From assembly GCA_029571025.1 (NCBI GenBank), contig JAKPTJ010000044.1:1-64000 (forward strand): DNA of 64,000 nucleotides, in the 5' to 3' direction. Positions 2,849 to 46,647 of the stretch are shown here, one piece after another. The notes beneath the pieces are model-generated. The model searched no databases. It saw only the letters and a program-made list of their open reading frames with translations, and was not told the DNA's origin. Position numbers and translations under genes: made by a program. The stretch comes from Deltaproteobacteria bacterium (GTDB taxonomy: Bacteria; Myxococcota_A; Polyangia; Polyangiales; Polyangiaceae). The first letter of the stretch is position 1. Each line of letters opens with the position of its first letter.

Positions 2849-3688
2849 ATGAAGACGCTCATCCCTTTCGTTTGCCTCACCAGTATGTTGTCGTTTTCCG
2901 CCTGTTCCATCGATTTGGAAAGCGAACCGGAGGGCCCCACGGCCAAAGATGCGCAGCAGGCTTGGCCTACCAAGCCCACCGTAGAACCCATCAGTCTCGA
3001 GTCGATAACCCGTGCGTGCATTGCCTACACCGCATGCGATGCGGACAATGCCCTCGGCCTCATGCAAGTAGAAATCTGTTTGACAGACCTGGCTTGGTCC
3101 GCTGAACGAGCCATCCCCATCTCCACGTCAAACCTTTTGTTTTCCGTGTTGGGTGACACCAACGAACGAGCAGAATTCTTCGTGGATTGCGTAGAAAAAT
3201 CCAAGGATTGCGGCGAAATCAAAGGATGCATCACCTCACGGGAAGCGGACTTCTCATGCGAAGAAGATGGCTGCAAAGCCAATACAACATACTCCGTGTC
3301 CTGCGATGGAACCGTCGCCGTCATGACAACCGACAACTCCACCATCCGTCGTGATTGCGCCCGCGTCTTCGGTGAATGTGACTCGAAAAGCCCCACGGGT
3401 TGCACCGACCGACACTACACCGCGTCTCCCTCCTCTCCTCCTCAGCCCGACCGTTGCGATGGCGATGTCCGTCTCGGTTGTGACAGTCTCCAACAAGTCA
3501 GCTACCGCGATTGCTCGAGGCTGAACGGCGTGTGCAAGCAAACCGAGGATTCCGCCATCTGCCACTACGGCGACGCCATCTGTGAGAAAACAGTGCGATG
3601 CGAAGGAGAAACGTTACACGCTTGTCTCGATGGAGCATCAGCTACCGTCCAAGCCCCCCACTTGTGTCCGCCCCCGGACCAACCATAA
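2849..3688 (+). CDS. Cysteine-rich secreted lipoprotein (hypothetical)
   Basis: Internal ATG at 2849 yields MKTLIPFVCLTSMLSFSAC (signal peptide with a lipobox-like SAC). The mature part has about 30 Cys in regular spacing (CxxxxC, CDGDVRLGCD), suggesting a disulfide-rich extracellular domain. No recognisable catalytic motif. Confidence 0.5.
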   Translation: MKTLIPFVCLTSMLSFSACSIDLESEPEGPTAKDAQQAWPTKPTVEPISLESITRACIAYTACDADNALGLMQVEICLTDLAWSAERAIPISTSNLLFSVLGDTNERAEFFVDCVEKSKDCGEIKGCITSREADFSCEEDGCKANTTYSVSCDGTVAVMTTDNSTIRRDCARVFGECDSKSPTGCTDRHYTASPSSPPQPDRCDGDVRLGCDSLQQVSYRDCSRLNGVCKQTEDSAICHYGDAICEKTVRCEGETLHACLDGASATVQAPHLCPPPDQP

Positions 3689-3691
3689 GCC

Positions 3692-5119
3692 TTACCAAAG
3701 ACCACTCCACCCAACGCCCATCACCGGAGCATACGTACCGTCCGCTCGTAAGCTTTGTCCGATCACCCCCGCCATGGGATGAGTCAAAGGCGCGTCGGCG
3801 CTTTTTTCTTCACTCGCCGCTGTCATCCAAAACGCTGCCAATCCCCCCGCCACAGCGCCAGACATCGTCACCAACACCCACGCACGTTGCCGCCCTTCGG
3901 TCGAATCACCGATGAGAAGCGGGCTTCCCACAGCCGCAAAAGACAGCGCCCCAAGCCCAGCACCCACGTCCACCATCATGATGCGCGAAGGCGATTCCTG
4001 CACCCAACGTCCCCATATTCCACCGACCGCAACGCCCCCCAGAGCACCGTATCCAAGGCCTTCGTAGGGAGTCACATCGGCCTTGCCACGAATCGCCATC
4101 TCCACGCCAGCCCCCAAACCCGTACCGATAAATCCACCAGAATGCGCCACCGCCGCGCCACCTGTGCCCATGCCGGCAAAGCTCAGGGATATCGACGCCA
4201 ACGACACGCCGGCCAGGCCACTTCCCACGGCCCACGCATAGCGATCCAATTCAGGCTGCACGTCGCGCCCCTTCGCCAACATCATTCCCCCGAAGACCGG
4301 CCAAACCGCCCCCGCGGACATATACCACGCGTCCCCAAGGCCCACGTCCCACTCCTCCGCAATGATCAGCGCACCCCCAAAACCCACGCCCGTTCCAAGC
4401 GCCATCAACGGATACGTCAGCCTCGCATCGTCCGATCCACTCGATTTTTGAAGAGAATATCCAACGAATCCGCCCAGCGCCGCCGCATGCATCACAAGCA
4501 CCGCCCTTCCCTCGGAGCGACGTTGTTCCGGTCTCATCGGACGTAGATCTCCTTCGAATCCAGAACCCCGATCGTCGTAGGAAGGCCTTGCCCCACGCAC
4601 AAGGTCGCGAAACATCACGACGGCTCGAACCTGGAAGTCCTCCGATGATACCGTCTCGGTGCGAACCAAAACGTGCTCCCCTCTCGGTGGCACCAAAAGC
4701 AAACGAAGGACGATATCCGAACCTTCGAATTCGAGGCGTGGTGATAACTGCCACGAAACGGAACGGGAAGCGCGGGCGAGCAATTCCCGCTCCGACACAA
4801 TGACATCGGAGGTGCGAGGCTCCGACAAGTCGACGACAAACCCAAGGTCTTGCGCCGTGTCGTGCAGCAGATTGTCCAACTCCCGCGCCTTGGTCCAAAG
4901 AAGACCATTTTGCAATTCGGGACGCCCCAGGGCCTTATCCGTAGGCACTTCACCCGTGGGCGTCAGGGTCGGAAGAATGACAATCCTGACCTCTTGCGCA
5001 ACGGAAGAGGATGAGTCCTGGGCGTGAGCGCGCGGCGACACGCCCGCCACAAAGCACGCAAGGCCGAGCCATGATGCTTTTGCGAAACGCCTCAGAACAT
5101 CACAACGCCATTGAGCCAC
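3692..5119 (-). CDS. Membrane protein with N-terminal periplasmic domain and Gly/Ala-rich transmembrane segments (hypothetical)
   Basis: N-terminal signal-like segment (WLGLACFVAGVSPRAHAQD) and a soluble domain of about 200 aa. The C-terminal half has repeated GxxxG/GAxxG-rich hydrophobic stretches (glycine-zipper-like). The high-GC context makes shadow ORFs common, so confidence is moderate. Confidence 0.45.
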   Translation of the reverse strand: MAQWRCDVLRRFAKASWLGLACFVAGVSPRAHAQDSSSSVAQEVRIVILPTLTPTGEVPTDKALGRPELQNGLLWTKARELDNLLHDTAQDLGFVVDLSEPRTSDVIVSERELLARASRSVSWQLSPRLEFEGSDIVLRLLLVPPRGEHVLVRTETVSSEDFQVRAVVMFRDLVRGARPSYDDRGSGFEGDLRPMRPEQRRSEGRAVLVMHAAALGGFVGYSLQKSSGSDDARLTYPLMALGTGVGFGGALIIAEEWDVGLGDAWYMSAGAVWPVFGGMMLAKGRDVQPELDRYAWAVGSGLAGVSLASISLSFAGMGTGGAAVAHSGGFIGTGLGAGVEMAIRGKADVTPYEGLGYGALGGVAVGGIWGRWVQESPSRIMMVDVGAGLGALSFAAVGSPLLIGDSTEGRQRAWVLVTMSGAVAGGLAAFWMTAASEEKSADAPLTHPMAGVIGQSLRADGTYAPVMGVGWSGLW

Positions 5120-6657
5120 AGGTCCACCACGCTGACATCGTCAACCTTGAACCGTTGCCCAACCTGGTTGATCGACGGTCGATAGTTGGGATTCGGAATA
5201 CCGGTCGCGCTGAACGTGGAAGTATCCCCCACCCGAGACACGTTTCGGCAAGGGCCCGCCTTCGACATGTCTTTTTTGAAGTCCGGGTTACACGGCTGGT
5301 CCATCGTGATGAAGTGCGGCTGCACATACATATATCCCACGCCGAGTTGGAACTTCACATACTCGCCCGCCTGCCACGTCACGCTACCCGAAGCCCGAAA
5401 CTTGCCATGGGCCTGCACATCCGTAAGCCCTGTGAAGTACACCTTCTGCGATGATGGATTGACCACGGAAGGATAGGTTTGCGCCGTCGCAGGATCGGGA
5501 TTGCGCTGGTACGAAGCGTAGTTGGGACGACGCAAAGACATCGCGTCGCTGGAGCCCAGGGCATCAAAAAGCTCACTATAATCGCGGCCTTCCGAACGAT
5601 AGGCCCCTTCGACGCGCGCATCGAAGGTGAGCCGTTGGAACTGCTCCCGATTCTCCCAAGGAATGACCATCATCCCCATGACCATCCATCCTTCCAACGG
5701 CGGATGGTTGACCAACGATCCCTCCAGATCCATCAAACCATAATCGCTCTTGTCCGTGGGAAACTCGAATAGTGCCCGGAAACCACCGTACGGCTCCAGA
5801 TACTTGATACGTCGCGAGACCAACGTATGCACTTCGATACCGGTGGTGCCACGACTCACCCCCGCGGACCGCTCCCCCGCTTTCGTTCCCTCGAGTTGAT
5901 ACGTCTGCCCAGTATGATCCGTATACGCGTAATTACCCGCCGTCCCATCGCGATTGACGTCGGATGGATCTGCACAGGAAACCTGCTTGTTGCCTTGATT
6001 GCCCCCCCCCGCACCACAGGCATGCATCGGCTCACTGAGACTGAACCTTCCCTCGAAACCAAACAACCACGTGGGTTTCGTGGCATCCCGTGCCTGGTTC
6101 ATGATGTTCACATCAAACCCTAGCGCGAGATACTCGATACCCGATCGGTCCGGAGATTCGAAGGGCAGACGAAACAACTGCTCTCCCGGCATCCCCGCAA
6201 GCACGACGCTCTGCACCCGATCGCTTCCATCAAGACCCGACAACTTGCTCGAGTCATTCAAGATGATCGGCATGCGAAGGTAAAGCGCGACATCCTTGTA
6301 CAACCCCACATCCACCCGCGTGTTGAGCCTCGAAGTCGAGCCGGAATACTTCGCCACGTTCATCGTGTCCGCCACGTATCCGCCCGACGACAATGAGCCT
6401 TGGTCAATCGAGGTTTCACGCACGATGTTGGCGTTCTTCCACATATGTTGATAGCCAAGGGTGAGGTGCAAATCGAAAAGGTCGTCGTCGTCGAAAGCGT
6501 CGACTACGGCCGTCACCTCACCAGGCTCGTTGAGTACGGGCCGTTCCGTTGCCTTATACGGCTCGTCCGCATAACCGGGCGAAACACCAAAAAGCATCGC
6601 GAACGCAACGAGGGCCCCACATCCCACCGGCACCGAATAGAGCGATTTCGTGGCCAT
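5092..6657 (-). CDS. Outer-membrane beta-barrel protein (hypothetical)
   Basis: Signal peptide MATKSLYSVPVGCGALVAFAMLFGVSPGYADEP. Alternating amphipathic beta-strand-like sequence throughout. C-terminal ...LNGVVMF ends in Phe, as in OMP85-dependent barrel signals. Confidence 0.55.
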   Translation of the reverse strand: MATKSLYSVPVGCGALVAFAMLFGVSPGYADEPYKATERPVLNEPGEVTAVVDAFDDDDLFDLHLTLGYQHMWKNANIVRETSIDQGSLSSGGYVADTMNVAKYSGSTSRLNTRVDVGLYKDVALYLRMPIILNDSSKLSGLDGSDRVQSVVLAGMPGEQLFRLPFESPDRSGIEYLALGFDVNIMNQARDATKPTWLFGFEGRFSLSEPMHACGAGGGNQGNKQVSCADPSDVNRDGTAGNYAYTDHTGQTYQLEGTKAGERSAGVSRGTTGIEVHTLVSRRIKYLEPYGGFRALFEFPTDKSDYGLMDLEGSLVNHPPLEGWMVMGMMVIPWENREQFQRLTFDARVEGAYRSEGRDYSELFDALGSSDAMSLRRPNYASYQRNPDPATAQTYPSVVNPSSQKVYFTGLTDVQAHGKFRASGSVTWQAGEYVKFQLGVGYMYVQPHFITMDQPCNPDFKKDMSKAGPCRNVSRVGDTSTFSATGIPNPNYRPSINQVGQRFKVDDVSVVDLWLNGVVMF

Positions 6658-6841
6658 TAAGCACATGTCCGTGTCGCGGACGGTAATGGCCTGGGTGATG
6701 GGATGTCAATGAATTACTCCCCGACGGGCCGATCCTTGGGTTTCCCCGAACGTCCGACGCTGGATTTCATGGCTTTGGATTCGAGGCTTGCCGAAGGGAA
6801 AAAGCGCGGTCGAACCTTTGGGGCAAGGGAGCGAGTCCCTT

Positions 6842-8215
6842 TCATTCCCTATCTCGGTTGATCGTATTCGGAATGGTGGGACGAGAATGAATGTCCTGCT
6901 CCTCCGCCGACACGGTGTCTTCGGACTGTTCATCGCGAAAAATATCCGCGGTGATGTCCTCGATTTCCATTTCCTCCCGCGCCGTTCGCAAGTCTTTCGT
7001 GGTCCGATCCAACCGGTCGGCCAGAACACCGAGAAATTGCCAGAGCAATTTGACGGCCATCTCGTGCTCTTTTCGTAAAATATCAAAGAAATCCGTACGG
7101 TTAATCGCAATGATCTCGCTTTTGGTTTCGGCCATGACATCCGCGCTTCGGGGCTGGCTTCGAATCAACGCCATCTCCCCAAAATGCTCCCCCTGTCCCA
7201 AGGTCGACAATTCTGCATCGCCCTTGAACACTTTGACCTGACCCGACAGCATGATGAAAAGCTCATCACCTCGATCCCCGTCCCGAATCACTTGTTGTCC
7301 TGGCTCGTAGGTTCGCACCTCCGCCACTTGCATCACTCGCATCAATTCACGCTCGGATAGCTTGCCGAACAACGGCATGCGCATCAACACCTCGCGCTTG
7401 AGCGCCAAACGCTGAGCACGCTGCGCTTCCATCGCCGTGCCCTCGCCCACCACCCGCACCAACACCACCGTGATATTGTCTTTTCCCCCTTTTTCATTGG
7501 CCATCGCGATGAGCGCTCGAGCCGCCTGCCCCTCCGGCATCGCAAGAGGTGCCTCGAGTTCTTGCATGCTATCGAGGTAGCCATGCAGCCCATCCGAACA
7601 CAATACGAGCTGGTCGCCCGGCAGCAATTCGAACGATAGCGTGTCCACCTCTACCTGTTCGTAAACCCCCAACGCTCGCGTGATCGCATGTTTCTGCGCA
7701 ACCTTCTCGATTTGATCCCGCGACAACTTACCCCGTTTGACCAGTTCGTTGAAAACCGTATGGTCTTCCGTGATCTGACGCCCCTTGCCGTTTCGTACGA
7801 GATAGATCCGCGAATCGCCCACGTGAGCAATGAAACCCCGGTTCCCACACACCAAAAGAAGCGACAACGTCGTGCCCATTCCCCGTTTGGCCACATCCAC
7901 TTGGGCCGCTTCATAGATGTGCTTGCACGCCTGCTGAACCGAATACTCCAGCAGGTTCAACACCCCCTTGACCGTCACCCGCGAAGCCCCTGAAGCTCCC
8001 GACAGAAAGTCGTCGAGCAACGTTCGCTCGCCTTTTATCTTCTCGTGAATCGTCCGAACCGCCAGCGCACTCGCTATCTCACCCGCCGCATGCCCCCCCA
8101 TCCCGTCTGCCACCATGAACAACGATAATCCCTTGTCAACAAGGAAGTTGTCTTCATTGTGGTCGCGTTTGCGTCCAACGTCCGTCTCGGCGTGAAACAG
8201 GATGTTCGTCCCCAT
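6842..8215 (-). CDS. PP2C-family (PPM) Ser/Thr phosphatase fused to a C-terminal cyclic-nucleotide-binding (cNMP/CAP) domain
   Basis: N-terminus [19 protein letters not shown]...[17 protein letters not shown]...VCSDGL carries PPM metal-binding motifs. C-terminus [50 protein letters not shown]...[10 protein letters not shown] is a typical cNMP-binding beta-roll (FGE(L/M)AL). Confidence 0.8.
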
Positions 8216-8309
8216 GCCTCGTTCCGTCGTGTGATTGATAACCGACCATACTCAATCGCCATGGTCGATGCGAGCCCTGGCGCACGTTGGCCCAACCCAT
8301 CCGTGTCGC

Positions 8310-9320
8310 TCAAGCATCCATCCGCGGATTCGCCGACAGTCCAGACCGCTCCGGTTTGACGTTTCCAGTCGGTACGGCCCCTGGTCGACGCCCCGCCGCC
8401 AACGCTCGGAACTCTCGAAGTTCCTTGAGCAATGTCTCAATATTGACCTCGTTCTTCAAATTCACTTTGAAGTCCGTCTCCGCTTCCTTTCGATCCTTGG
8501 CTGCCTGTCGGTTCTGGCTCATCACGATGAGCGGCCCTTGCAACGCCACCAATACCGCAAGCAATAAATTGAAAAATTGATAGGGATATTCGTCGGGCGC
8601 GTGCGAAAACACCACTCCAGGAATGTTGATGAGCACCCATCCTACCGTCAACCCCGATAGGATAAGGATGAACGACCAACTGCCATTCAACTCCGCCACC
8701 CGATCGGCCAGACGATCCGCCCAGCCCATCCCCTTTTCAAACTCCTCGATCACATTGCGTGCCGCTCGCTCGCTCAACATCGCGTTGGTCTGACGCAACC
8801 TTTCGGACATTGTTCGTAAAATGGCCATCGCCGCCCGCGGACGACGTTCCAAGTACGATGTCAACACGGTTCTTCCCAACTCCAAAAGCACCGTATCGGT
8901 CATGGCTTGGGCACTTGCACTCCGCGGCTTGTCGTCGAATAGCGCGACTTCCCCAAATACTTTTCCCACGGTCAAGTCCGCCAACGACACGCGCGTCGTT
9001 GGATCGCCCGGCAGATGAATATTCACCGTGCCCTCGGCGACAAGGTACATCGTATCGCCCGCCTCCCCTGCTTCGAATACGACCTGGCCCGCCGAATAGC
9101 GTCGTTCCACGAGTTCCGCGGCGAGGTCCTCGACGTCCTGATCATCGAGCCCCTCGAACATCGGAATGCTTCGGAGCAGGTCAGCGGGGTTTTTCACGAC
9201 CCGCTCAGTGTGGCGCGCCTTTCCCTCACTTGCAATACTTGCGATGGCGGAAGGCGACTCTCCCTTTCGTTCCTTGCCCAATGTGCTAGACGACGCGCGT
9301 GAACGAAGCCATTGCAGCAC
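8310..9320 (-). CDS. Cyclic-nucleotide-binding domain protein with C-terminal DUF1003-like membrane domain
   Basis: MFEGLDDQDVEDLAAELVERRYSAGQVVFEAGEAGDTMYLVAEGTVNI...FGEVALFDDKPRSASAQA is a cNMP-binding domain. C-terminal WSFILILSGLTVGWVLIN...FFNLLLAVLVALQGPLIVMSQNRQAAKDR resembles DUF1003 two-TM proteins. The true start may be the internal Met (MFEGL), because the 5' end overlaps the divergent HD gene. Confidence 0.7.
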   Translation of the reverse strand: MLQWLRSRASSSTLGKERKGESPSAIASIASEGKARHTERVVKNPADLLRSIPMFEGLDDQDVEDLAAELVERRYSAGQVVFEAGEAGDTMYLVAEGTVNIHLPGDPTTRVSLADLTVGKVFGEVALFDDKPRSASAQAMTDTVLLELGRTVLTSYLERRPRAAMAILRTMSERLRQTNAMLSERAARNVIEEFEKGMGWADRLADRVAELNGSWSFILILSGLTVGWVLINIPGVVFSHAPDEYPYQFFNLLLAVLVALQGPLIVMSQNRQAAKDRKEAETDFKVNLKNEVNIETLLKELREFRALAAGRRPGAVPTGNVKPERSGLSANPRMDA

Positions 9321-10228
9321 AATGCGACGCTGCCTTTCTCATTCTCGACCATGCCGTCGCACGCGCCGAAGGGGCGCCCACCACCGCCCCCAACCTCCGC
9401 GTCACACCAGATTTTCCACTCGCTACACGCACCGCTCCTCAACAAGTGCGCCTCAGACTCGACCGCACGCTCATGGCCCCCGACCCGGAAAGCGGCCTCG
9501 ATGCTCTGCTCGATTACGGTGTGCTCGACGCCCTGCTTCCGGAAGTCTCTGCCTTGGTCGGATTCGGGGATGGCGAATGGCGTCATAAAGACGTTTGGAA
9601 ACATACGAAACAAGTCGTTCGACAAGCAGAAGCTCGCCTGTCCGTGCGCTGGGCTGCCCTTTTGCACGATGTGGGGAAAGTCAAAACACGAAGCATCAGC
9701 GCCGACGGCCAAGTTCATTTCTTTGGGCATGCGGAGTTGGGCGCACGCATGTTCGACCGCATTGGAAAACGATTGGGATTTTTTGAGCCCCCCCTGCACC
9801 GAAGCATCCGCTTTCTCATCTTGCACCACCTTCGCGCCAACCAATACGAAAAGGATTGGACCGATAGCGCGGTGCGCAGATTCGCACGGGAAATCGGCGC
9901 CGAACTCGATGACCTGTTGTGCCTCTCGCGCGCTGATATCACCACCAAACGCCCGGAGAAAAAACGCCGCGGGCTGCAGCAGATCGCAGAACTTTCTGAA
10001 CGAATTCGCGAACTTGCCGTTCTCGACGCCCGCGTGCCTCCCCTGCCCTCCGGCGTCGGCAACGAAATCATGGACGCCTTCGGCATCCCCCCTTCACGCC
10101 TCATCGGCCAAATCAAACAAGCCCTGGAACAAGCCATCGAAGAAGGCGAACTGCCGGGTCACGAACCCTCCGCCTTCTACGTCGCCTTCCTCAAAGAAAA
10201 CCGAACCCGATTCGGCCTGCCCGAATGA
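9299..10228 (+). CDS. HD-domain phosphohydrolase (CCA-adding-enzyme/poly(A)-polymerase C-terminal-like, no nucleotidyltransferase head)
   Basis: RWAALLHDVGKVKT...HFFGHAELGARMF and ...ILHHLRANQY...CLSRADITTK are HD-motif segments, typical of the HD/tRNA-NT C-terminal region. No GGxVRD polymerase-beta head is present in this ORF. Confidence 0.6.
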   Translation: MNEAIAAQCDAAFLILDHAVARAEGAPTTAPNLRVTPDFPLATRTAPQQVRLRLDRTLMAPDPESGLDALLDYGVLDALLPEVSALVGFGDGEWRHKDVWKHTKQVVRQAEARLSVRWAALLHDVGKVKTRSISADGQVHFFGHAELGARMFDRIGKRLGFFEPPLHRSIRFLILHHLRANQYEKDWTDSAVRRFAREIGAELDDLLCLSRADITTKRPEKKRRGLQQIAELSERIRELAVLDARVPPLPSGVGNEIMDAFGIPPSRLIGQIKQALEQAIEEGELPGHEPSAFYVAFLKENRTRFGLPE

Positions 10229-10237
10229 CCCGACGCA

Positions 10238-10834
10238 TCATTCCGTCACGGTTATCGTGATCTCATCCCAAGCGCGTTCCCGATGCTGCTGGTCGTAGCC
10301 CACGAGCCGAAGCGAATGAAAACCAGGCTCTGAAATCCACAAACGCCCCGACTTCGTCAACACAGGCTCCCACAACTCCGTCAAAGGAATCGAATCCGAA
10401 AAAATTTGTACGTAATCCACGTGACGAGCGCCAATCTCGAAAAAGAGGGGATTCGATAGCGCCGCCCCCTCCGACGGTTGGATGAAAAACACTTTGCTTT
10501 CCAAGGGTTCCATCGTGGAGGGCATGGCATCCTCCGCGTCGGCTTCCCCCTCGACAACACCCCCCTCCTGCCTTTCTTGGGCTTCCTCCTCGCCTCGCCC
10601 CGCATCCTGGAACGGCCATGGGGATGACGGCGCTTCCGCTTCGACCGAGTCTTGAGAAGGCTGCGGTTCAGAAGCCGTGGCCGCCTCAGAGGAAGGTTCA
10701 TCAGTCATTTCAGGTTGATGACCGTCCGGAAATGAAACGAAAACCGGATCCGAACATCCCAAACCCAAGATCAACAACCCGCCTAGCACCATGGGGATAA
10801 TCATCTTGCCCATGCCCAAGGAACTACAGCACAT
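10238..10834 (-). CDS. Acidic secreted lipoprotein (hypothetical)
   Basis: MGKMIIPMVLGGLLILGLGCSDPVF signal with Cys. Glu/Asp-rich low-complexity middle section. No catalytic motifs. Confidence 0.45.
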   Translation of the reverse strand: MCCSSLGMGKMIIPMVLGGLLILGLGCSDPVFVSFPDGHQPEMTDEPSSEAATASEPQPSQDSVEAEAPSSPWPFQDAGRGEEEAQERQEGGVVEGEADAEDAMPSTMEPLESKVFFIQPSEGAALSNPLFFEIGARHVDYVQIFSDSIPLTELWEPVLTKSGRLWISEPGFHSLRLVGYDQQHRERAWDEITITVTE

Positions 10835-42610: not shown

Positions 42611-45600
42611 CTAGATACCGTACTCAGCGCGCTCGATCAGCTCGAGCTGCATCTGCTTGTTCAGCGTGACGAAATAGGCATTATACCCGGAAATCCGCAC
42701 GAGCAAATTGCGATAGTTCTCCGGATGAACCATCGCGTCGCGAAGGGTATCGGACGTGACTGCGTTGAGCTGCATTTGCATGCCCCCCAGCGAAAAATAG
42801 GACTTCACGTACGCGGCCATCGTGTCGACCGTCCGCTCCCGCGACTCATGGGCCGATGGCACCACCTTCACATTGAAGGCAATATTGTTCGGCATATTGG
42901 CCGGATCCAACCTGGCCACATCACGGATATTGTCCAATAGGTTCGGCGATGCCCCCGGTGTGGGAGTCAGACCTGGCGTAAATGGCTTGCCCGCCAACCG
43001 CCCCGACGGCAAAGCTCCAGCCAGCGTGCCGTAAGATACATGCGTAGACATCGACCAGAACCCAGCCGCATAACGGCCTCCCCGGTAGTTGGTATACCGA
43101 TCATACAGCGACTGCACCATCTTGGTAATGCGGTTGCCCATCGCCACGGCGTCTTCGTTGCCCGAGCCAAAAAGCGCTACTTTGTGGGATACCTGCGCCA
43201 ATAACAGCGGATCGTTGGCGAAATTCGTGTCCACTGCCCGCTTGAGGTCAGCGAATGACACAACTCGTTGCTCGAATACGAGCTTCTGGATCACCAACAT
43301 CGAATCGATGACGTCAACCAGCCCGATGCACGCAGCCCCAGAACTGTTGTACCTGGCTCCCCCATACGTAACATCCTTTCCCGATGCAATGGTGCCCTCG
43401 ATCAGGCTGGACAGCAGTGGCGTCGGACGAAGCTGCTGATGCGCCTTACCCAACATCTCGTTGTACTCGATCGATCGGTCGACCAGAAAAGCCACCTGCT
43501 GCCGGTAAGCCTCGAAAAACTGGTCGAAATTCGCAAAATCGCCAGCCTCGATCGAACCGGTAGATGGTCCCACCTTCCAATCCATCAGCGGATGCCAGCC
43601 GTCGTTCAACGCCATCTCCAGCGCCGCCACCAGACTGAGCATCTGGAAATTGGTATGGCCGATATGCTTTCCCGACAGCGTCGGCTCCACACACCCGGTC
43701 GCCGCCCAATCACGCACGTCACGTACCTCATAGCCATAGCGGCTCAAGGCCTTCCCCACGACCTCGTCGTTATGCAACGACGGAGTCGCCGCCGTGATCA
43801 GATTGACCTCGCAAAGACGCTTCAGGTACGCTTGGCTGTTTTTGCCCAGATGGAATCTAGCGTTCACATTTGGGTCGCGAAGACTAAGGATTTCAGTGAC
43901 TTTCAAGAATATATACGTCATATCGCAGACCGCGTCTTCGCCTTCGGGGGTCACCCCGCCCAGCGTGATCGCTTGATCCGAGGAACTGCCACCAAAGTAG
44001 TAGTTGGCCACGTCGGGAGTCAGCGGCAAGTGGTCCGTGCAGCGCAGCATCAAGTCACCCACCAGTTCAATCGCACGTTTGGTGTAGGCCCGCCGCTGCT
44101 CCAAAGTCTCCAACTTGCCCATATCGGCCTCGAAATATGGCTGCAGCCACTGGTCCAACCGGCCCATCGACAGCCCGGCATTGGTGCTTTCCATATGCAG
44201 CCCCACCCACGTGATCCACACCGAATTCACCGCCTCATCGAGCGTGCGGGCTGGCCCCACGACCACCTGGCTACAGATCTCGGCCAGTCGGCGCAACTCA
44301 GCCGCCCGACTGGGGTCGCTTTCCCGCTCCGCCTCATACGCCGCTTGCGCCGCCAAATGCCGAGAATAGGTGCCCAACCCCTCCAGCGCGAGAATGAATG
44401 CCCGCCGGGTGGTATTACGCTCCTCATCCGAGTCGGCAGCCATCGCTTCCTCGATCTCGGCGATGATGCCGGACGTTCCCAGCCGCAACATCTTGGGGAA
44501 ATCCGGGATCGTGTGTGAGATGGTTGCGGTTTTCCAGTCGAAATAGACCGCAAATCGGTCGTCGATACGCTGGCCCAAAGGCGAACGGTAGTGGTCTCGC
44601 ACCCATTCCTTGAAGTTGCGACGGCTCCAATAGGGGAATACATCCTTATGCAGCAATTCTCGGGTCTCCTCCGAGACACCGTAAGGATTCAGAGGTCGAT
44701 GCGGCACCGTCAGCAGCTCGCCCCAGATCATCGTCCCATGCCCCTCCGGATAGACAACCACACCGGTTTCCTTGGTAGTTGTCGTGCCGGCAATGAGGTC
44801 GTTGGCATGGATGATCGGCCGACGATTCTCCATCACATATTGATAGGCCAGGGCTTTGCGCAGCACCGGGTGCCAGGGCTTGCCCTTCGAATCTCGCTCG
44901 AAACCGTGTTTTCGATGCCATTCGGTCAATAGTTTCGGCAATTCTGGGCATACCTCGGCGTCATGGTCGAGGTGCCGGTTCAAAAACTTAGCTAGCCGCG
45001 GGAAATCCTTCAAACTGAAATCACGCAAGTAGGGGTCCTCGAGATATTTCACACCCGGATCGACTTGCGAAGTCGCAATGCGGTAGTCCGCACGCTCGCG
45101 CATCTGCCGGGCCAGATCAGGATTCGTGGCACCGGCTTGTGTGCGACGATCAGCGTTATCGTTACGAAGATCTTTCGCCAGATTCTTGATTTGCTGGCGG
45201 AAAAGGAGTCGGGAAATCAGATATACGAACAGGTTTAGCGATGATGTATTGCCATCGACGTAAAAGTCGTTGCGCAACGTCATGAGGACCTGCTCGGTTG
45301 GCGTGGCCGTGAGGAATTTCGTAACTTCAGCGTCGGATTTGAATACCAGCACGACATCGACGGCCTCGGGAATGCGGCCCATCGCCTTTGCTTTGCCATC
45401 TCGAAACCGGATTCCGGTGCGCACGGAGCCAGAGCGGGTGCGAATGCCGACCACAAGATCGATCCAACCGTCCTTGATACGCAATTCGTCACGCAACCTG
45501 GGGTGCCAGGTGTAGAGCTTGGCCATGAGACCGAGCAGCCCACGCACGATCAATTGTTGCGGACTGTGGCGCGCCGCATCGCTCACCGCCGGGTCCGGAT

Positions 45601-45718
45601 GAAATGGGCGCATGTCCAGCGGGTCCACCGGGGGCAGCTTCACAGCGGTCGGTTCGGCCATGGTCATGGCATGCTCGGTTCCGGAAGAAGTGGACGAAGA
45701 GGTGTTGGGGAACGTCAT
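42611..45718 (-). CDS. Glycyl radical enzyme (PFL-like superfamily) with Cys-x-Glu active-site loop and about 250-aa N-terminal extension; substrate unknown
   Basis: C-terminal glycyl radical motif VRISGYNAYFV (RVSGY-type). Thiyl loop WAATGCVEPTLSGKH (Cys-Val-Glu as in dehydratase/lyase-type GREs; PFL has Cys-Cys). 1035 aa. The ATG overlaps the activase stop (ATGA). Confidence 0.9.
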   Translation of the reverse strand: MTFPNTSSSTSSGTEHAMTMAEPTAVKLPPVDPLDMRPFHPDPAVSDAARHSPQQLIVRGLLGLMAKLYTWHPRLRDELRIKDGWIDLVVGIRTRSGSVRTGIRFRDGKAKAMGRIPEAVDVVLVFKSDAEVTKFLTATPTEQVLMTLRNDFYVDGNTSSLNLFVYLISRLLFRQQIKNLAKDLRNDNADRRTQAGATNPDLARQMRERADYRIATSQVDPGVKYLEDPYLRDFSLKDFPRLAKFLNRHLDHDAEVCPELPKLLTEWHRKHGFERDSKGKPWHPVLRKALAYQYVMENRRPIIHANDLIAGTTTTKETGVVVYPEGHGTMIWGELLTVPHRPLNPYGVSEETRELLHKDVFPYWSRRNFKEWVRDHYRSPLGQRIDDRFAVYFDWKTATISHTIPDFPKMLRLGTSGIIAEIEEAMAADSDEERNTTRRAFILALEGLGTYSRHLAAQAAYEAERESDPSRAAELRRLAEICSQVVVGPARTLDEAVNSVWITWVGLHMESTNAGLSMGRLDQWLQPYFEADMGKLETLEQRRAYTKRAIELVGDLMLRCTDHLPLTPDVANYYFGGSSSDQAITLGGVTPEGEDAVCDMTYIFLKVTEILSLRDPNVNARFHLGKNSQAYLKRLCEVNLITAATPSLHNDEVVGKALSRYGYEVRDVRDWAATGCVEPTLSGKHIGHTNFQMLSLVAALEMALNDGWHPLMDWKVGPSTGSIEAGDFANFDQFFEAYRQQVAFLVDRSIEYNEMLGKAHQQLRPTPLLSSLIEGTIASGKDVTYGGARYNSSGAACIGLVDVIDSMLVIQKLVFEQRVVSFADLKRAVDTNFANDPLLLAQVSHKVALFGSGNEDAVAMGNRITKMVQSLYDRYTNYRGGRYAAGFWSMSTHVSYGTLAGALPSGRLAGKPFTPGLTPTPGASPNLLDNIRDVARLDPANMPNNIAFNVKVVPSAHESRERTVDTMAAYVKSYFSLGGMQMQLNAVTSDTLRDAMVHPENYRNLLVRISGYNAYFVTLNKQMQLELIERAEYGI

Positions 45719-46647
45719 ATCGCCTCCAGGCCGAGATCAACGAGATGTTGGCGCAGTCGGGCTGCCAGGCCGCGGGGCAGCCATGTCCGCATAATATCTA
45801 ACTCAGTGAATTTGTTAGCAATTCCCAATTGAGGACCCTTGTCTACCCAGGTTGGATTGTAATCCAGCAACCGGACTTGACGAACCCCCACATCGAGCAG
45901 AAATCGGCCGATCGCCGTCAGGTTTTCTTCCGTCGCGGTGATATCCGGGACCAGCGGAATGCGCGGCTGCAGATCGAACGTCCCGGCACGGGATAGCTCC
46001 ACCAACCGCTTGAAATTGGCCAGGATCCGCTCGTTCGGCACCCCGCAATACGCACGGTGGTCCTCGGAATCCATGAGTTTCAGGTCATAATAGATGGCGT
46101 TCAGATGCGGCAGCACCCCTCGTTCGAACGGCTCCCACCGAAAGTATCCGGCAGTCTCTAAAAGGGTGTGTATACCTTCGGCACGACAGGCCGCGGCAAG
46201 TTCCCCAAGCAGCTCCATCGCTAGAGTCGGCTCTCCCCCGGAAAAGGTGACGCCGCCTCCGGAGGCTTCATAAAAGGGCTTATCCGCGCGAAGCTTGGCC
46301 ATCAACTCGGCGACGTTGGCTGGCTTACCCACCTGGCGCAAAGCCCCCGATGGACAGACCGGTACGCAGTCGAAGCATCTGGTGCAGGCCCAACGATTGA
46401 TGCCGACACCAGGCATGATGGCGTCCTCGGGGCAGTGGCCACGACATCGGGTACAGCCGGAAATACAATCCGCAACATTAAATGACAACTCAGCGTTTTG
46501 ACTCAAACTTTCCGGGTTATGACACCATCGGCACGACAGCTTACAGCCCTTGAAAAAAACCACCGAGCGAATGCCCGGACCGTCGTCAAGCGCGTTGCCT
46601 TTCACCTCGAGCAGCAACGGTTCGTGCTTCGTCAGAATGGCCGTCAT
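45715..46647 (-). CDS. Glycyl-radical-enzyme activating enzyme (radical SAM, with two auxiliary ferredoxin-like [4Fe-4S] motifs)
   Basis: CKLSCRWCHNPE is the Cx3Cx2C radical-SAM cluster. CISGCTRCRGHCP and CTRCFDCVPVCP are ferredoxin-type Cys motifs. A glycine-rich SAM motif (SGGEP) is present. Confidence 0.9.
   Translation of the reverse strand: MTAILTKHEPLLLEVKGNALDDGPGIRSVVFFKGCKLSCRWCHNPESLSQNAELSFNVADCISGCTRCRGHCPEDAIMPGVGINRWACTRCFDCVPVCPSGALRQVGKPANVAELMAKLRADKPFYEASGGGVTFSGGEPTLAMELLGELAAACRAEGIHTLLETAGYFRWEPFERGVLPHLNAIYYDLKLMDSEDHRAYCGVPNERILANFKRLVELSRAGTFDLQPRIPLVPDITATEENLTAIGRFLLDVGVRQVRLLDYNPTWVDKGPQLGIANKFTELDIMRTWLPRGLAARLRQHLVDLGLEAI

Follow-up and report, generated by a model that had tools for sequence, protein, structure and literature searches.

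A PP2C phosphatase and a DUF1003 membrane protein with predicted cyclic nucleotide sensors in Polyangiaceae

Myxobacteria possess very large repertoires of Ser/Thr kinases, and the control of their few phosphatases is poorly understood. A PP2C-type phosphatase switched directly by a cyclic nucleotide would join the two signaling systems. Such an architecture, a PP2C domain with a C-terminal cyclic nucleotide-binding (CNB) domain, was pointed out in 2010 for Mxan4398, sce2855, and sce6950, whose activity was predicted to be regulated by cyclic AMP (cAMP) or cyclic GMP (cGMP), and it was described as 'not found outside Myxococcales' (PMC2887360). Here, two adjacent genes, designated A and B, are analyzed in a 64,000-nucleotide stretch of DNA from an uncultured Polyangiaceae lineage (contig JAKPTJ010000044.1, positions 1 to 64,000; hereafter the window). 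Gene A encodes a PP2C-CNB fusion, and gene B, directly upstream, fuses a CNB domain to the membrane domain DUF1003. The two products are probably separate cytoplasm-facing receptors for cyclic mononucleotides (cNMPs), which act as independent effectors and lie side by side in one Polyangiaceae sub-clade, rather than forming an obligate two-gene device.

6842-8215, minus strand: gene A, 457 aa, PP2C (PPM) Ser/Thr phosphatase with a C-terminal cNMP-binding (CNB) domain (Pfam, NCBIfam)
8310-9320, minus strand: gene B, 336 aa as the longest open reading frame (ORF), CNB domain and two-helix DUF1003 membrane domain (Pfam, translation)

Gene A resembles the three proteins described in 2010 in its phylum and, at the level of architecture, in its N-terminal PP2C domain and single C-terminal CNB domain; with a Sorangium orthologue (P0115), it shares 65% identity over residues 1-439. 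It differs from the myxobacterial fusions in its uncultured lineage and in having a CNB-DUF1003 gene directly upstream. The taxonomic range given in 2010 is too narrow, since full-length fusions occur in metagenome-assembled genomes (MAGs) labeled Bradymonadia, Persicimonas, and Bacteriovoracaceae. The cNMP_binding domain also appears in a 2025 survey of the domain combinations of bacterial PP2C proteins (PMC12088040), and a literature search found no experimental work on MXAN_4398, sce2855, sce6950, or Pph3.

The catalytic domain of A can be aligned with those of Stp1/IreP, PstP, and tPphA and has identical metal ligands, whereas these enzymes lack a CNB domain and either have a cognate Hanks kinase gene as partner or are membrane-anchored. 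Among eukaryotes, Arabidopsis PP2C19 and rice PKG likewise place cNMP-binding domains behind an N-terminal PP2C domain, but they contain two CNB domains and a C-terminal kinase. The rice PP2C-CNB-kinase has been reported as a cGMP-inhibited phosphatase, which provides an experimental precedent for a fused PP2C regulated by a cNMP, and in Arabidopsis phototropism the PP2C domain alone is sufficient (PMC11775391).

The DUF1003 domain of B is widespread among membrane proteins and has no known function, and its CNB-fused form offers a handle in the shape of a likely ligand. B shares the two-helix domain and the SQNRQ...KDR...AE.DF motif with other family members, including SAN_2180 of group B Streptococcus (GBS) and SMU_1307c of Streptococcus mutans, and differs from most of them in belonging to the CNB-fused rather than the stand-alone type. 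SAN_2180 is CiaR-regulated and reportedly homologous to a Lactococcus lactis protein tied to acid and multistress tolerance (PMC4839699). During experimental evolution of S. mutans, mutations repeatedly struck both SMU_1307c and pknB, a Hanks kinase gene, in parallel populations (PMC9163064), which hints loosely that DUF1003 may be connected with Ser/Thr phosphorylation.

In the channels MloK1 and SthK, a CNB domain similar in sequence faces the cytoplasm, and these membrane proteins provide a conceptual model for a membrane domain under cNMP control. Their CNB domain is C-terminal, however, and their channel body consists of six helices with a K+ selectivity filter, whereas B carries its CNB domain at the N terminus and has only the two-helix DUF1003 hairpin. 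Neither Ion_trans nor any other channel family of Pfam matches B at E values up to 10. No ion-transport pore domain with a selectivity filter was found in B, and the model of B has only two transmembrane helices.

Neither architecture is new, as CNB-DUF1003 proteins are numerous and routinely annotated and PP2C-CNB proteins have been described since 2010, and neither of the corresponding functional predictions is new. What the locus adds is a clade-specific juxtaposition of B and A, together with clean sequence evidence of two intact sensors. Modestly new are also the broader linkage of A to a pair of genes for an outer-membrane barrel and an inner-membrane protein, the occurrence of the PP2C-CNB fusion in Bradymonadia and Bacteriovoracaceae MAGs, and tandem-DUF1003 chains that hint at an oligomeric function.

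Gene A and its phosphatase domain

Both fusions were confirmed by Pfam, with an additional NCBIfam match for the phosphatase part of A, and Pfam places a CNB domain in each of the two neighboring minus-strand genes, in agreement with the initial annotation, which had described from the DNA letters two adjacent same-strand genes with CAP-family cNMP-binding domains. A is 100% identical to a public protein (P0001) from a Polyangiaceae MAG, listed by NCBI as 'Stp1/IreP family PP2C-type Ser/Thr phosphatase [Polyangiaceae bacterium]'. B is identical to a 323-aa JGI gene call (P0121) on 26 contigs (23 of 26 examined), and JGI metagenome contigs such as Ga0116253_10000558 match the window.

7451-8185, minus strand: PP2C catalytic domain of A, residues 11-255 (alignment to Stp1, tPphA, and PstP)

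The N-terminal region of A is matched by the Pfam families PP2C_2 (1.5e-16; 61 bits against a cutoff of 24) and PP2C (9.5e-11). The NCBIfam model for Stp1/IreP PP2C phosphatases (NF033484) aligns to residues 11-253 over profile positions 2-231 of 232, with a score of 231.9 bits that exceeds its cutoff of 230 by a narrow margin. The domain aligns end to end with Stp1 (2pk0), tPphA (2j82), and PstP (1txo) at E values of ~1e-33 to 1e-35, and residues R17, D22, D37/G38, D134, D208, and D246 of A correspond to R13, D18, D34/G35, D119, D193, and D231 of tPphA. All metal-binding residues and the phosphate-binding Arg are present and invariant across the 13 homologs of A (63-82% identity) that form alignment A1. 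Because the domain aligns over its entire length and every metal ligand is kept and invariant, A is predicted to be an active, catalytically competent phosphatase.

Cyclic nucleotide-binding domains and their probable ligand

7016-7390, minus strand: CNB domain of A, residues ~276-400, followed by a conserved C-helix (PF00027; PKG/PKA relatives)
7142-7180, minus strand: phosphate-binding cassette of A, with E347 and R356 (translation; invariant in alignment A1)
8769-9182, minus strand: CNB domain of B with C-helix, residues 47-184
8916-8954, minus strand: phosphate-binding cassette of B, GEVALFDDKPRSA, with E124 and R133 (translation; invariant in alignment A2)

Against a cutoff of 27.5 bits, the Pfam family cNMP_binding (PF00027) matches residues 301-382 of A (3e-22; 78.8 bits) and residues 72-159 of B (6.1e-20; 71.4 bits). 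A search of the six-frame translation with a custom hidden Markov model built from both families found CNB domains only in these two genes of the 64-kb window. In A, the cassette columns G346, E347, P355, R356, S357, and A358 are invariant across the 13 homologs; in B, the Gly-Glu and Arg-Ser-Ala positions that include E124 and R133 are invariant across the 14 homologs of alignment A2 (60-84% identity). Both cassettes fit G-E-x-A-L-(x)4-P-R-[ST]-A, the consensus of CAP, PKA, and MloK1. The C-helix that follows the CNB domain of A is likewise invariant in alignment A1, and the corresponding hinge/lid shifts upon ligand binding in PKA, Epac, and CRP. Degeneration of the cassette Arg and Glu, which the initial annotation had named as the finding that would speak against nucleotide binding, is observed in neither protein. 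The direct connection that it had drawn between cyclic nucleotides and a phosphatase is reasonable as a prediction, given that the cassette of A is intact and the full set of PP2C metal ligands is kept.

The two CNB domains share 29% identity and belong to different subtypes, with PKG and PKA CNB domains as the nearest solved structures for A and the CRP-type sensor 2pqq for B; judged by this divergence and by their different nearest solved relatives, they are not recent duplicates. A Ser follows the cassette Arg in CAP and MloK1, and a Thr occupies this position in PKG. By the R-S-A form of the cassette, which is a rule of thumb only, cAMP is the most likely ligand of both A and B.

The CNB fold also serves heme, 2-oxoglutarate, chlorophenols, and other ligands among CRP/FNR relatives, and it is conceivable, though distinctly improbable, that one or both domains sense neither cAMP nor cGMP and instead bind another small ligand or none, so that the proteins would not be second-messenger effectors. 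The closest solved relative of B, 2pqq, is an uncharacterized CRP-like domain, and a sweep of the window revealed no nucleotide cyclase among the called genes around B or the best 25 of 53 Pfam families. However, the cassette Arg and Glu are typically lost in CNB-fold proteins that do not bind cNMPs, whereas they are present and invariant in both families here.

Gene B and the DUF1003 membrane domain

8403-8684, minus strand: DUF1003 domain of B, comprising a first transmembrane helix (TM1), a short acidic loop, a second helix (TM2), and a conserved cytoplasmic motif (PF06210, model, translation)

With a cutoff of 27.4 bits, Pfam DUF1003 (PF06210) matches residues 213-306 in a search with the whole protein (2.9e-27; 95.3 bits) and is recovered again with the isolated domain (5.2e-28; 97.7 bits). 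Two hydrophobic stretches, WSFILILSGLTVGWVLINI and FFNLLLAVLVALQGPLIVM, are predicted to form the two transmembrane helices. TM2 is followed by the motif MSQNRQxxKDRxxAExDFKVNLKNEVNIE, which is rich in Lys and Arg and invariant in alignment A2. Because the loop between the helices is acidic and the flank behind TM2 is K/R-rich, a topology with both termini inside (N-in/C-in) and the sensor in the cytoplasm fits the predicted structure. In the model (P0121 numbering), the CNB domain is followed by a long helix (148-198) that continues the C-helix, by TM1 (202-219), by a helix comprising TM2 and its cytoplasmic extension (233-278), and by a last helix (281-297). The predicted local distance difference test (pLDDT) score of the model is 65.6, with good values in the CNB domain and poor to moderate values beyond it.

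An exhaustive profile-free search placed the DUF1003 family in 3776 clusters at 50% identity. Stand-alone proteins of ~160-200 aa make up most of the family, and a class of ~280-340 aa is CNB-fused, with PF00027 and PF06210 both present in 7 of 7 tested sequences. Some single polypeptides (P0372, P0381, and P0428) carry the domain in tandem, with 2-4 copies each. Since one chain can hold several copies, these proteins suggest that the two-helix unit works as an oligomer, either a dimer or a tetramer.

A combination of CNB domain and transmembrane helices is also found in PycTM of the Pycsar antiphage systems, described as a receptor for cNMPs that opens a pore across the membrane (PMC11224242), and by analogy B might be regarded as a comparable effector, in which a cyclic pyrimidine made during infection would bind the CNB domain and trigger a lethal pore. 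PADLOC does match the CNB region of B to PycTIR/effector models (4.9e-13 and 3.6e-12). However, these matches are confined to the CNB domain and are obtained equally with A, and no PycC cyclase is present among the called genes around B in the window, at the Minicystis locus, or on three contigs of relatives with gene calls. In addition, B is well conserved (48-80% identity) and syntenic with the housekeeping gene serS in many genomes rather than residing in a variable defence island, and DUF1003 is a broad, mostly stand-alone family. With a similarity limited to the CNB domain and common to A, no partner cyclase among these called genes, and a conserved syntenic position, the Pycsar reading of B is extremely improbable and was rejected.

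Start codon of gene B and the divergent HD gene

9299-10228, plus strand: HD/HDIG gene, divergent from B (Pfam HD 6.8e-10; TIGR02692)

The predicted start of B had initially been described as overlapping the divergent HD gene. This holds for the longest ORF, which begins at GTG 9320, and for no other start. The public gene call begins at TTG 9281 (323 aa) and leaves no overlap. In alignment A2, homologs of B are conserved only from about M-x-N-x-x-DLLRSIPMFEGL onward, and several of them begin 1-2 residues ahead of N-x-x-DLLRSIPMFEGL; these N termini correspond in the window to GTG 9197 (295 aa), which would separate B from the HD gene by ~100 nt, and the intergenic distance in relatives is 100-145 nt. 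The true start is therefore likely to be TTG 9281 or GTG 9197 on the basis of these comparisons, and the overlap is an artifact of choosing the longest ORF.

Conservation of the gene pair

8216-8309, minus strand: B-A intergenic spacer of 94 nt, with a -10-like TATGGT box ~30 nt before the start of A and the ribosome-binding site GGAACGAGG (sequence)
5092-6666, minus strand: u524, uncharacterized outer-membrane beta-barrel protein, downstream of A
3692-5119, minus strand: u475, signal peptide and Gly-rich multi-pass membrane protein, after u524 (no significant Pfam match)

A scan of GTDB species representatives (one genome per species) with the alignment of A returned 80 loci, of which 44 encode the full PP2C-CNB fusion (42 of them with at least 1.5 kb of upstream sequence). 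The fusion loci span Polyangiaceae, Haliangiales, Kofleriaceae, Nannocystaceae, and Myxococcaceae, as well as MAGs labeled Bradymonadia, Persicimonas, and Bacteriovoracaceae, and not one of the 44 has a DUF1003 or HD gene within 10 kb. In the reverse direction, metagenomes were scanned with the alignment of B, which gave 80 loci at 48-77% identity, ~36 of them with at least 1.5 kb downstream. A stands beside B at a single locus, that of the closest relative (L163; 77%), which also carries the HD gene, u524, and u475; the HD gene likewise occurs at 1 of the 80 B loci. In Sorangium sp. So ce1078 and Minicystis rosea, A and B are unlinked and lie in unrelated neighborhoods. Because of these counts (0 of 44 and 1 of 80) and the two genomes in which both genes occur apart, A and B are considered probably independent. 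The compact second-messenger output module proposed in the initial annotation is thus not conserved across taxa, and the HD gene next to it is absent from all 44 of the other A loci and is a neighbor within the sub-clade only.

In other genomes, a thioredoxin-like gene and serS typically come after B; these conserved neighbors give no clue to the function of B, and the clustering of ORFs around the 80 B loci yielded mostly wrong-frame ORFs from high-GC DNA. A separate observation concerns the taxonomic labels of some fusion loci: L027, L031, L041, L043, L044, and L049 lie on contigs labeled Bradymonadia, Persicimonas, Bacteriovoracaceae, Verrucomicrobiales, Rickettsiales, and Klebsiella pneumoniae, of which the last three labels probably reflect mis-binned contigs.

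Within the sub-clade, the order of the HD gene followed divergently by B-A-u524-u475 is kept in the window, in L163, and on three further contigs, with A at 68-73% identity in these relatives. The juxtaposition of B and A next to the HD gene is thus genuine and stably kept, but in one uncultured Polyangiaceae sub-clade only (A at ~68% identity or more), and is not a general property of either gene.

The spacer between B and A contains the -10-like TATGGT box ~20-35 nt before the start of A, and a TATNNT box is also found in orthologues that lack B upstream. In more distant orthologues of A, TTGAC-N17-TGATAC occupies the position of the TATNNT box. Since the -10-like box is kept with or without B upstream, A probably retains its own promoter. 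A consensus promoter and terminator scan of positions 3400-10400 gave no more sites than shuffled sequence, and it did not detect the TATGGT box of the spacer; it is uninformative on operon structure. As a side observation, the near-consensus TTGAC-N17-TGATAC lies only ~10-15 nt before the start codon in distant PP2C-CNB orthologues (e.g., L024, L029, L030, L033, and L037), which, by its position, would imply very short or leaderless transcripts there; Polyangiaceae orthologues of A retain the TATNNT box only.

Several results weigh against two fully independent receptors. The B-A order persists down to ~68% (A) and ~71% (B) identity, with same-strand gaps of 74-94 nt in the four loci where they are readable, and the consensus scan found no terminator-like site in the spacer; co-transcription or a common role within the sub-clade is possible. 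As for the receptor functions themselves, the DUF1003 part of the model of B has low confidence (pLDDT 50-78), a PDB sequence search with this region found no solved-structure match, and the isolated region matched no second family in Pfam or NCBIfam at E values up to 10. The absence of a cyclase from the sweep described above and the weakness of the R-S-A rule of thumb, from which cAMP is assigned, count in the same direction.

Taken furthest, the synteny would mean that B and A, perhaps joined by u524 and u475, constitute within this Polyangiaceae sub-clade a true operon and functional unit, in which one cNMP signal switches a membrane effector and a phosphatase acting on the same envelope process. 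The 94-nt gap on one strand without a terminator-like hairpin, the gene order kept in four further relatives, and the position of A and B as the sole CNB genes in 64 kb are all compatible with this explanation, and the parallel S. mutans mutations (PMC9163064) add a loose hint. However, the pair is absent from all 44 of the other species-level genomes that carry A and from 79 of 80 loci with B, a promoter-like element of A is retained in the spacer, and synteny within a clade is expected by common descent alone. An operon of this kind is thus considered rather unlikely, and two independent receptors remain the preferred explanation.

A proposed mechanism for two independent receptors

According to the preferred explanation, A would be a cytoplasmic Mn/Mg-dependent PP2C phosphatase with an activity that depends on whether a cNMP occupies the PKA/PKG-like CNB domain at its C terminus. 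Ligand bound at the cassette (E347/R356) would reposition the hinge/lid C-helix, which would serve as an allosteric transmitter and alter either the accessibility of the PP2C active site or its geometry. Dephosphorylation of Hanks-kinase substrates could thereby be raised or lowered. B would be located in the inner membrane with its N and C termini both cytoplasmic, and its CRP-like CNB domain would run via a long, probably dimeric helix into TM1. Ligand binding at this domain may send a signal down the helix to the DUF1003 hairpin, which is probably oligomeric, and probably changes the packing of the assembly. The output would be an altered membrane property, with permeability to ions or protons, or an envelope-stress response, as the leading guess because of the stress-tolerance hints for DUF1003 relatives. 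As the sweep described above revealed no cyclase nearby, both proteins would answer a cell-wide signal.

A more speculative extension, for which the likelihood appears low, is that DUF1003 constitutes a ligand-operated membrane element, such as a small oligomeric cation or proton conduit, which in this clade was recruited beside the cNMP-regulated PP2C and its envelope partners, so that one cAMP signal would reset both permeability and Ser/Thr phosphorylation. If true, DUF1003 would thereby gain its first function, and a PP2C pathway under cNMP control would be known for the first time in bacteria.

Neighboring genes and other features of the window

The envelope proteins u524 and u475 are more widely conserved neighbors of A than B is. 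Both are conserved after A in Sorangium, and among 35 representative A loci with sufficient flanking sequence, u524 is present at 10 and u475 at 6, mainly in Polyangiaceae, with one Polyangia MAG and one Myxococcaceae MAG. The u524 product has a signal peptide, a C-terminal Phe, and more than 1500 homologs annotated as 'hypothetical', and it matches no Pfam family.

The product of the HD gene aligns to positions 206-452 of the 466 in TIGR02692 and to residues 318-497 of 3wfo. It resembles class II CCA/A-adding enzymes in their C-terminal half and lacks the nucleotidyltransferase head, which makes it a stand-alone 'body plus HD' protein. A role as a cNMP phosphodiesterase was considered for this neighbor and set aside, as it resembles the C-terminal body of CCA/A-adding enzymes and lies near A or B only within the sub-clade. 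The sole Hanks kinase of the window lies 43 kb away.

Other features of the window include an 829-aa ORF on the minus strand (26725-29214) with an MVP_shoulder match (1.8e-27; residues 515-625) and a weak Vault_3 repeat match (7e-06), which, by these matches, looks like a bacterial homolog of the eukaryotic major vault protein (MVP) on a Polyangiaceae contig. Further along, the minus strand encodes a 1035-aa glycyl-radical enzyme (42611-45718; PFL-like 4.9e-154, Gly_radical 1.1e-22), and an ORF overlapping it on the same strand (45715-46647) may encode its putative activase.

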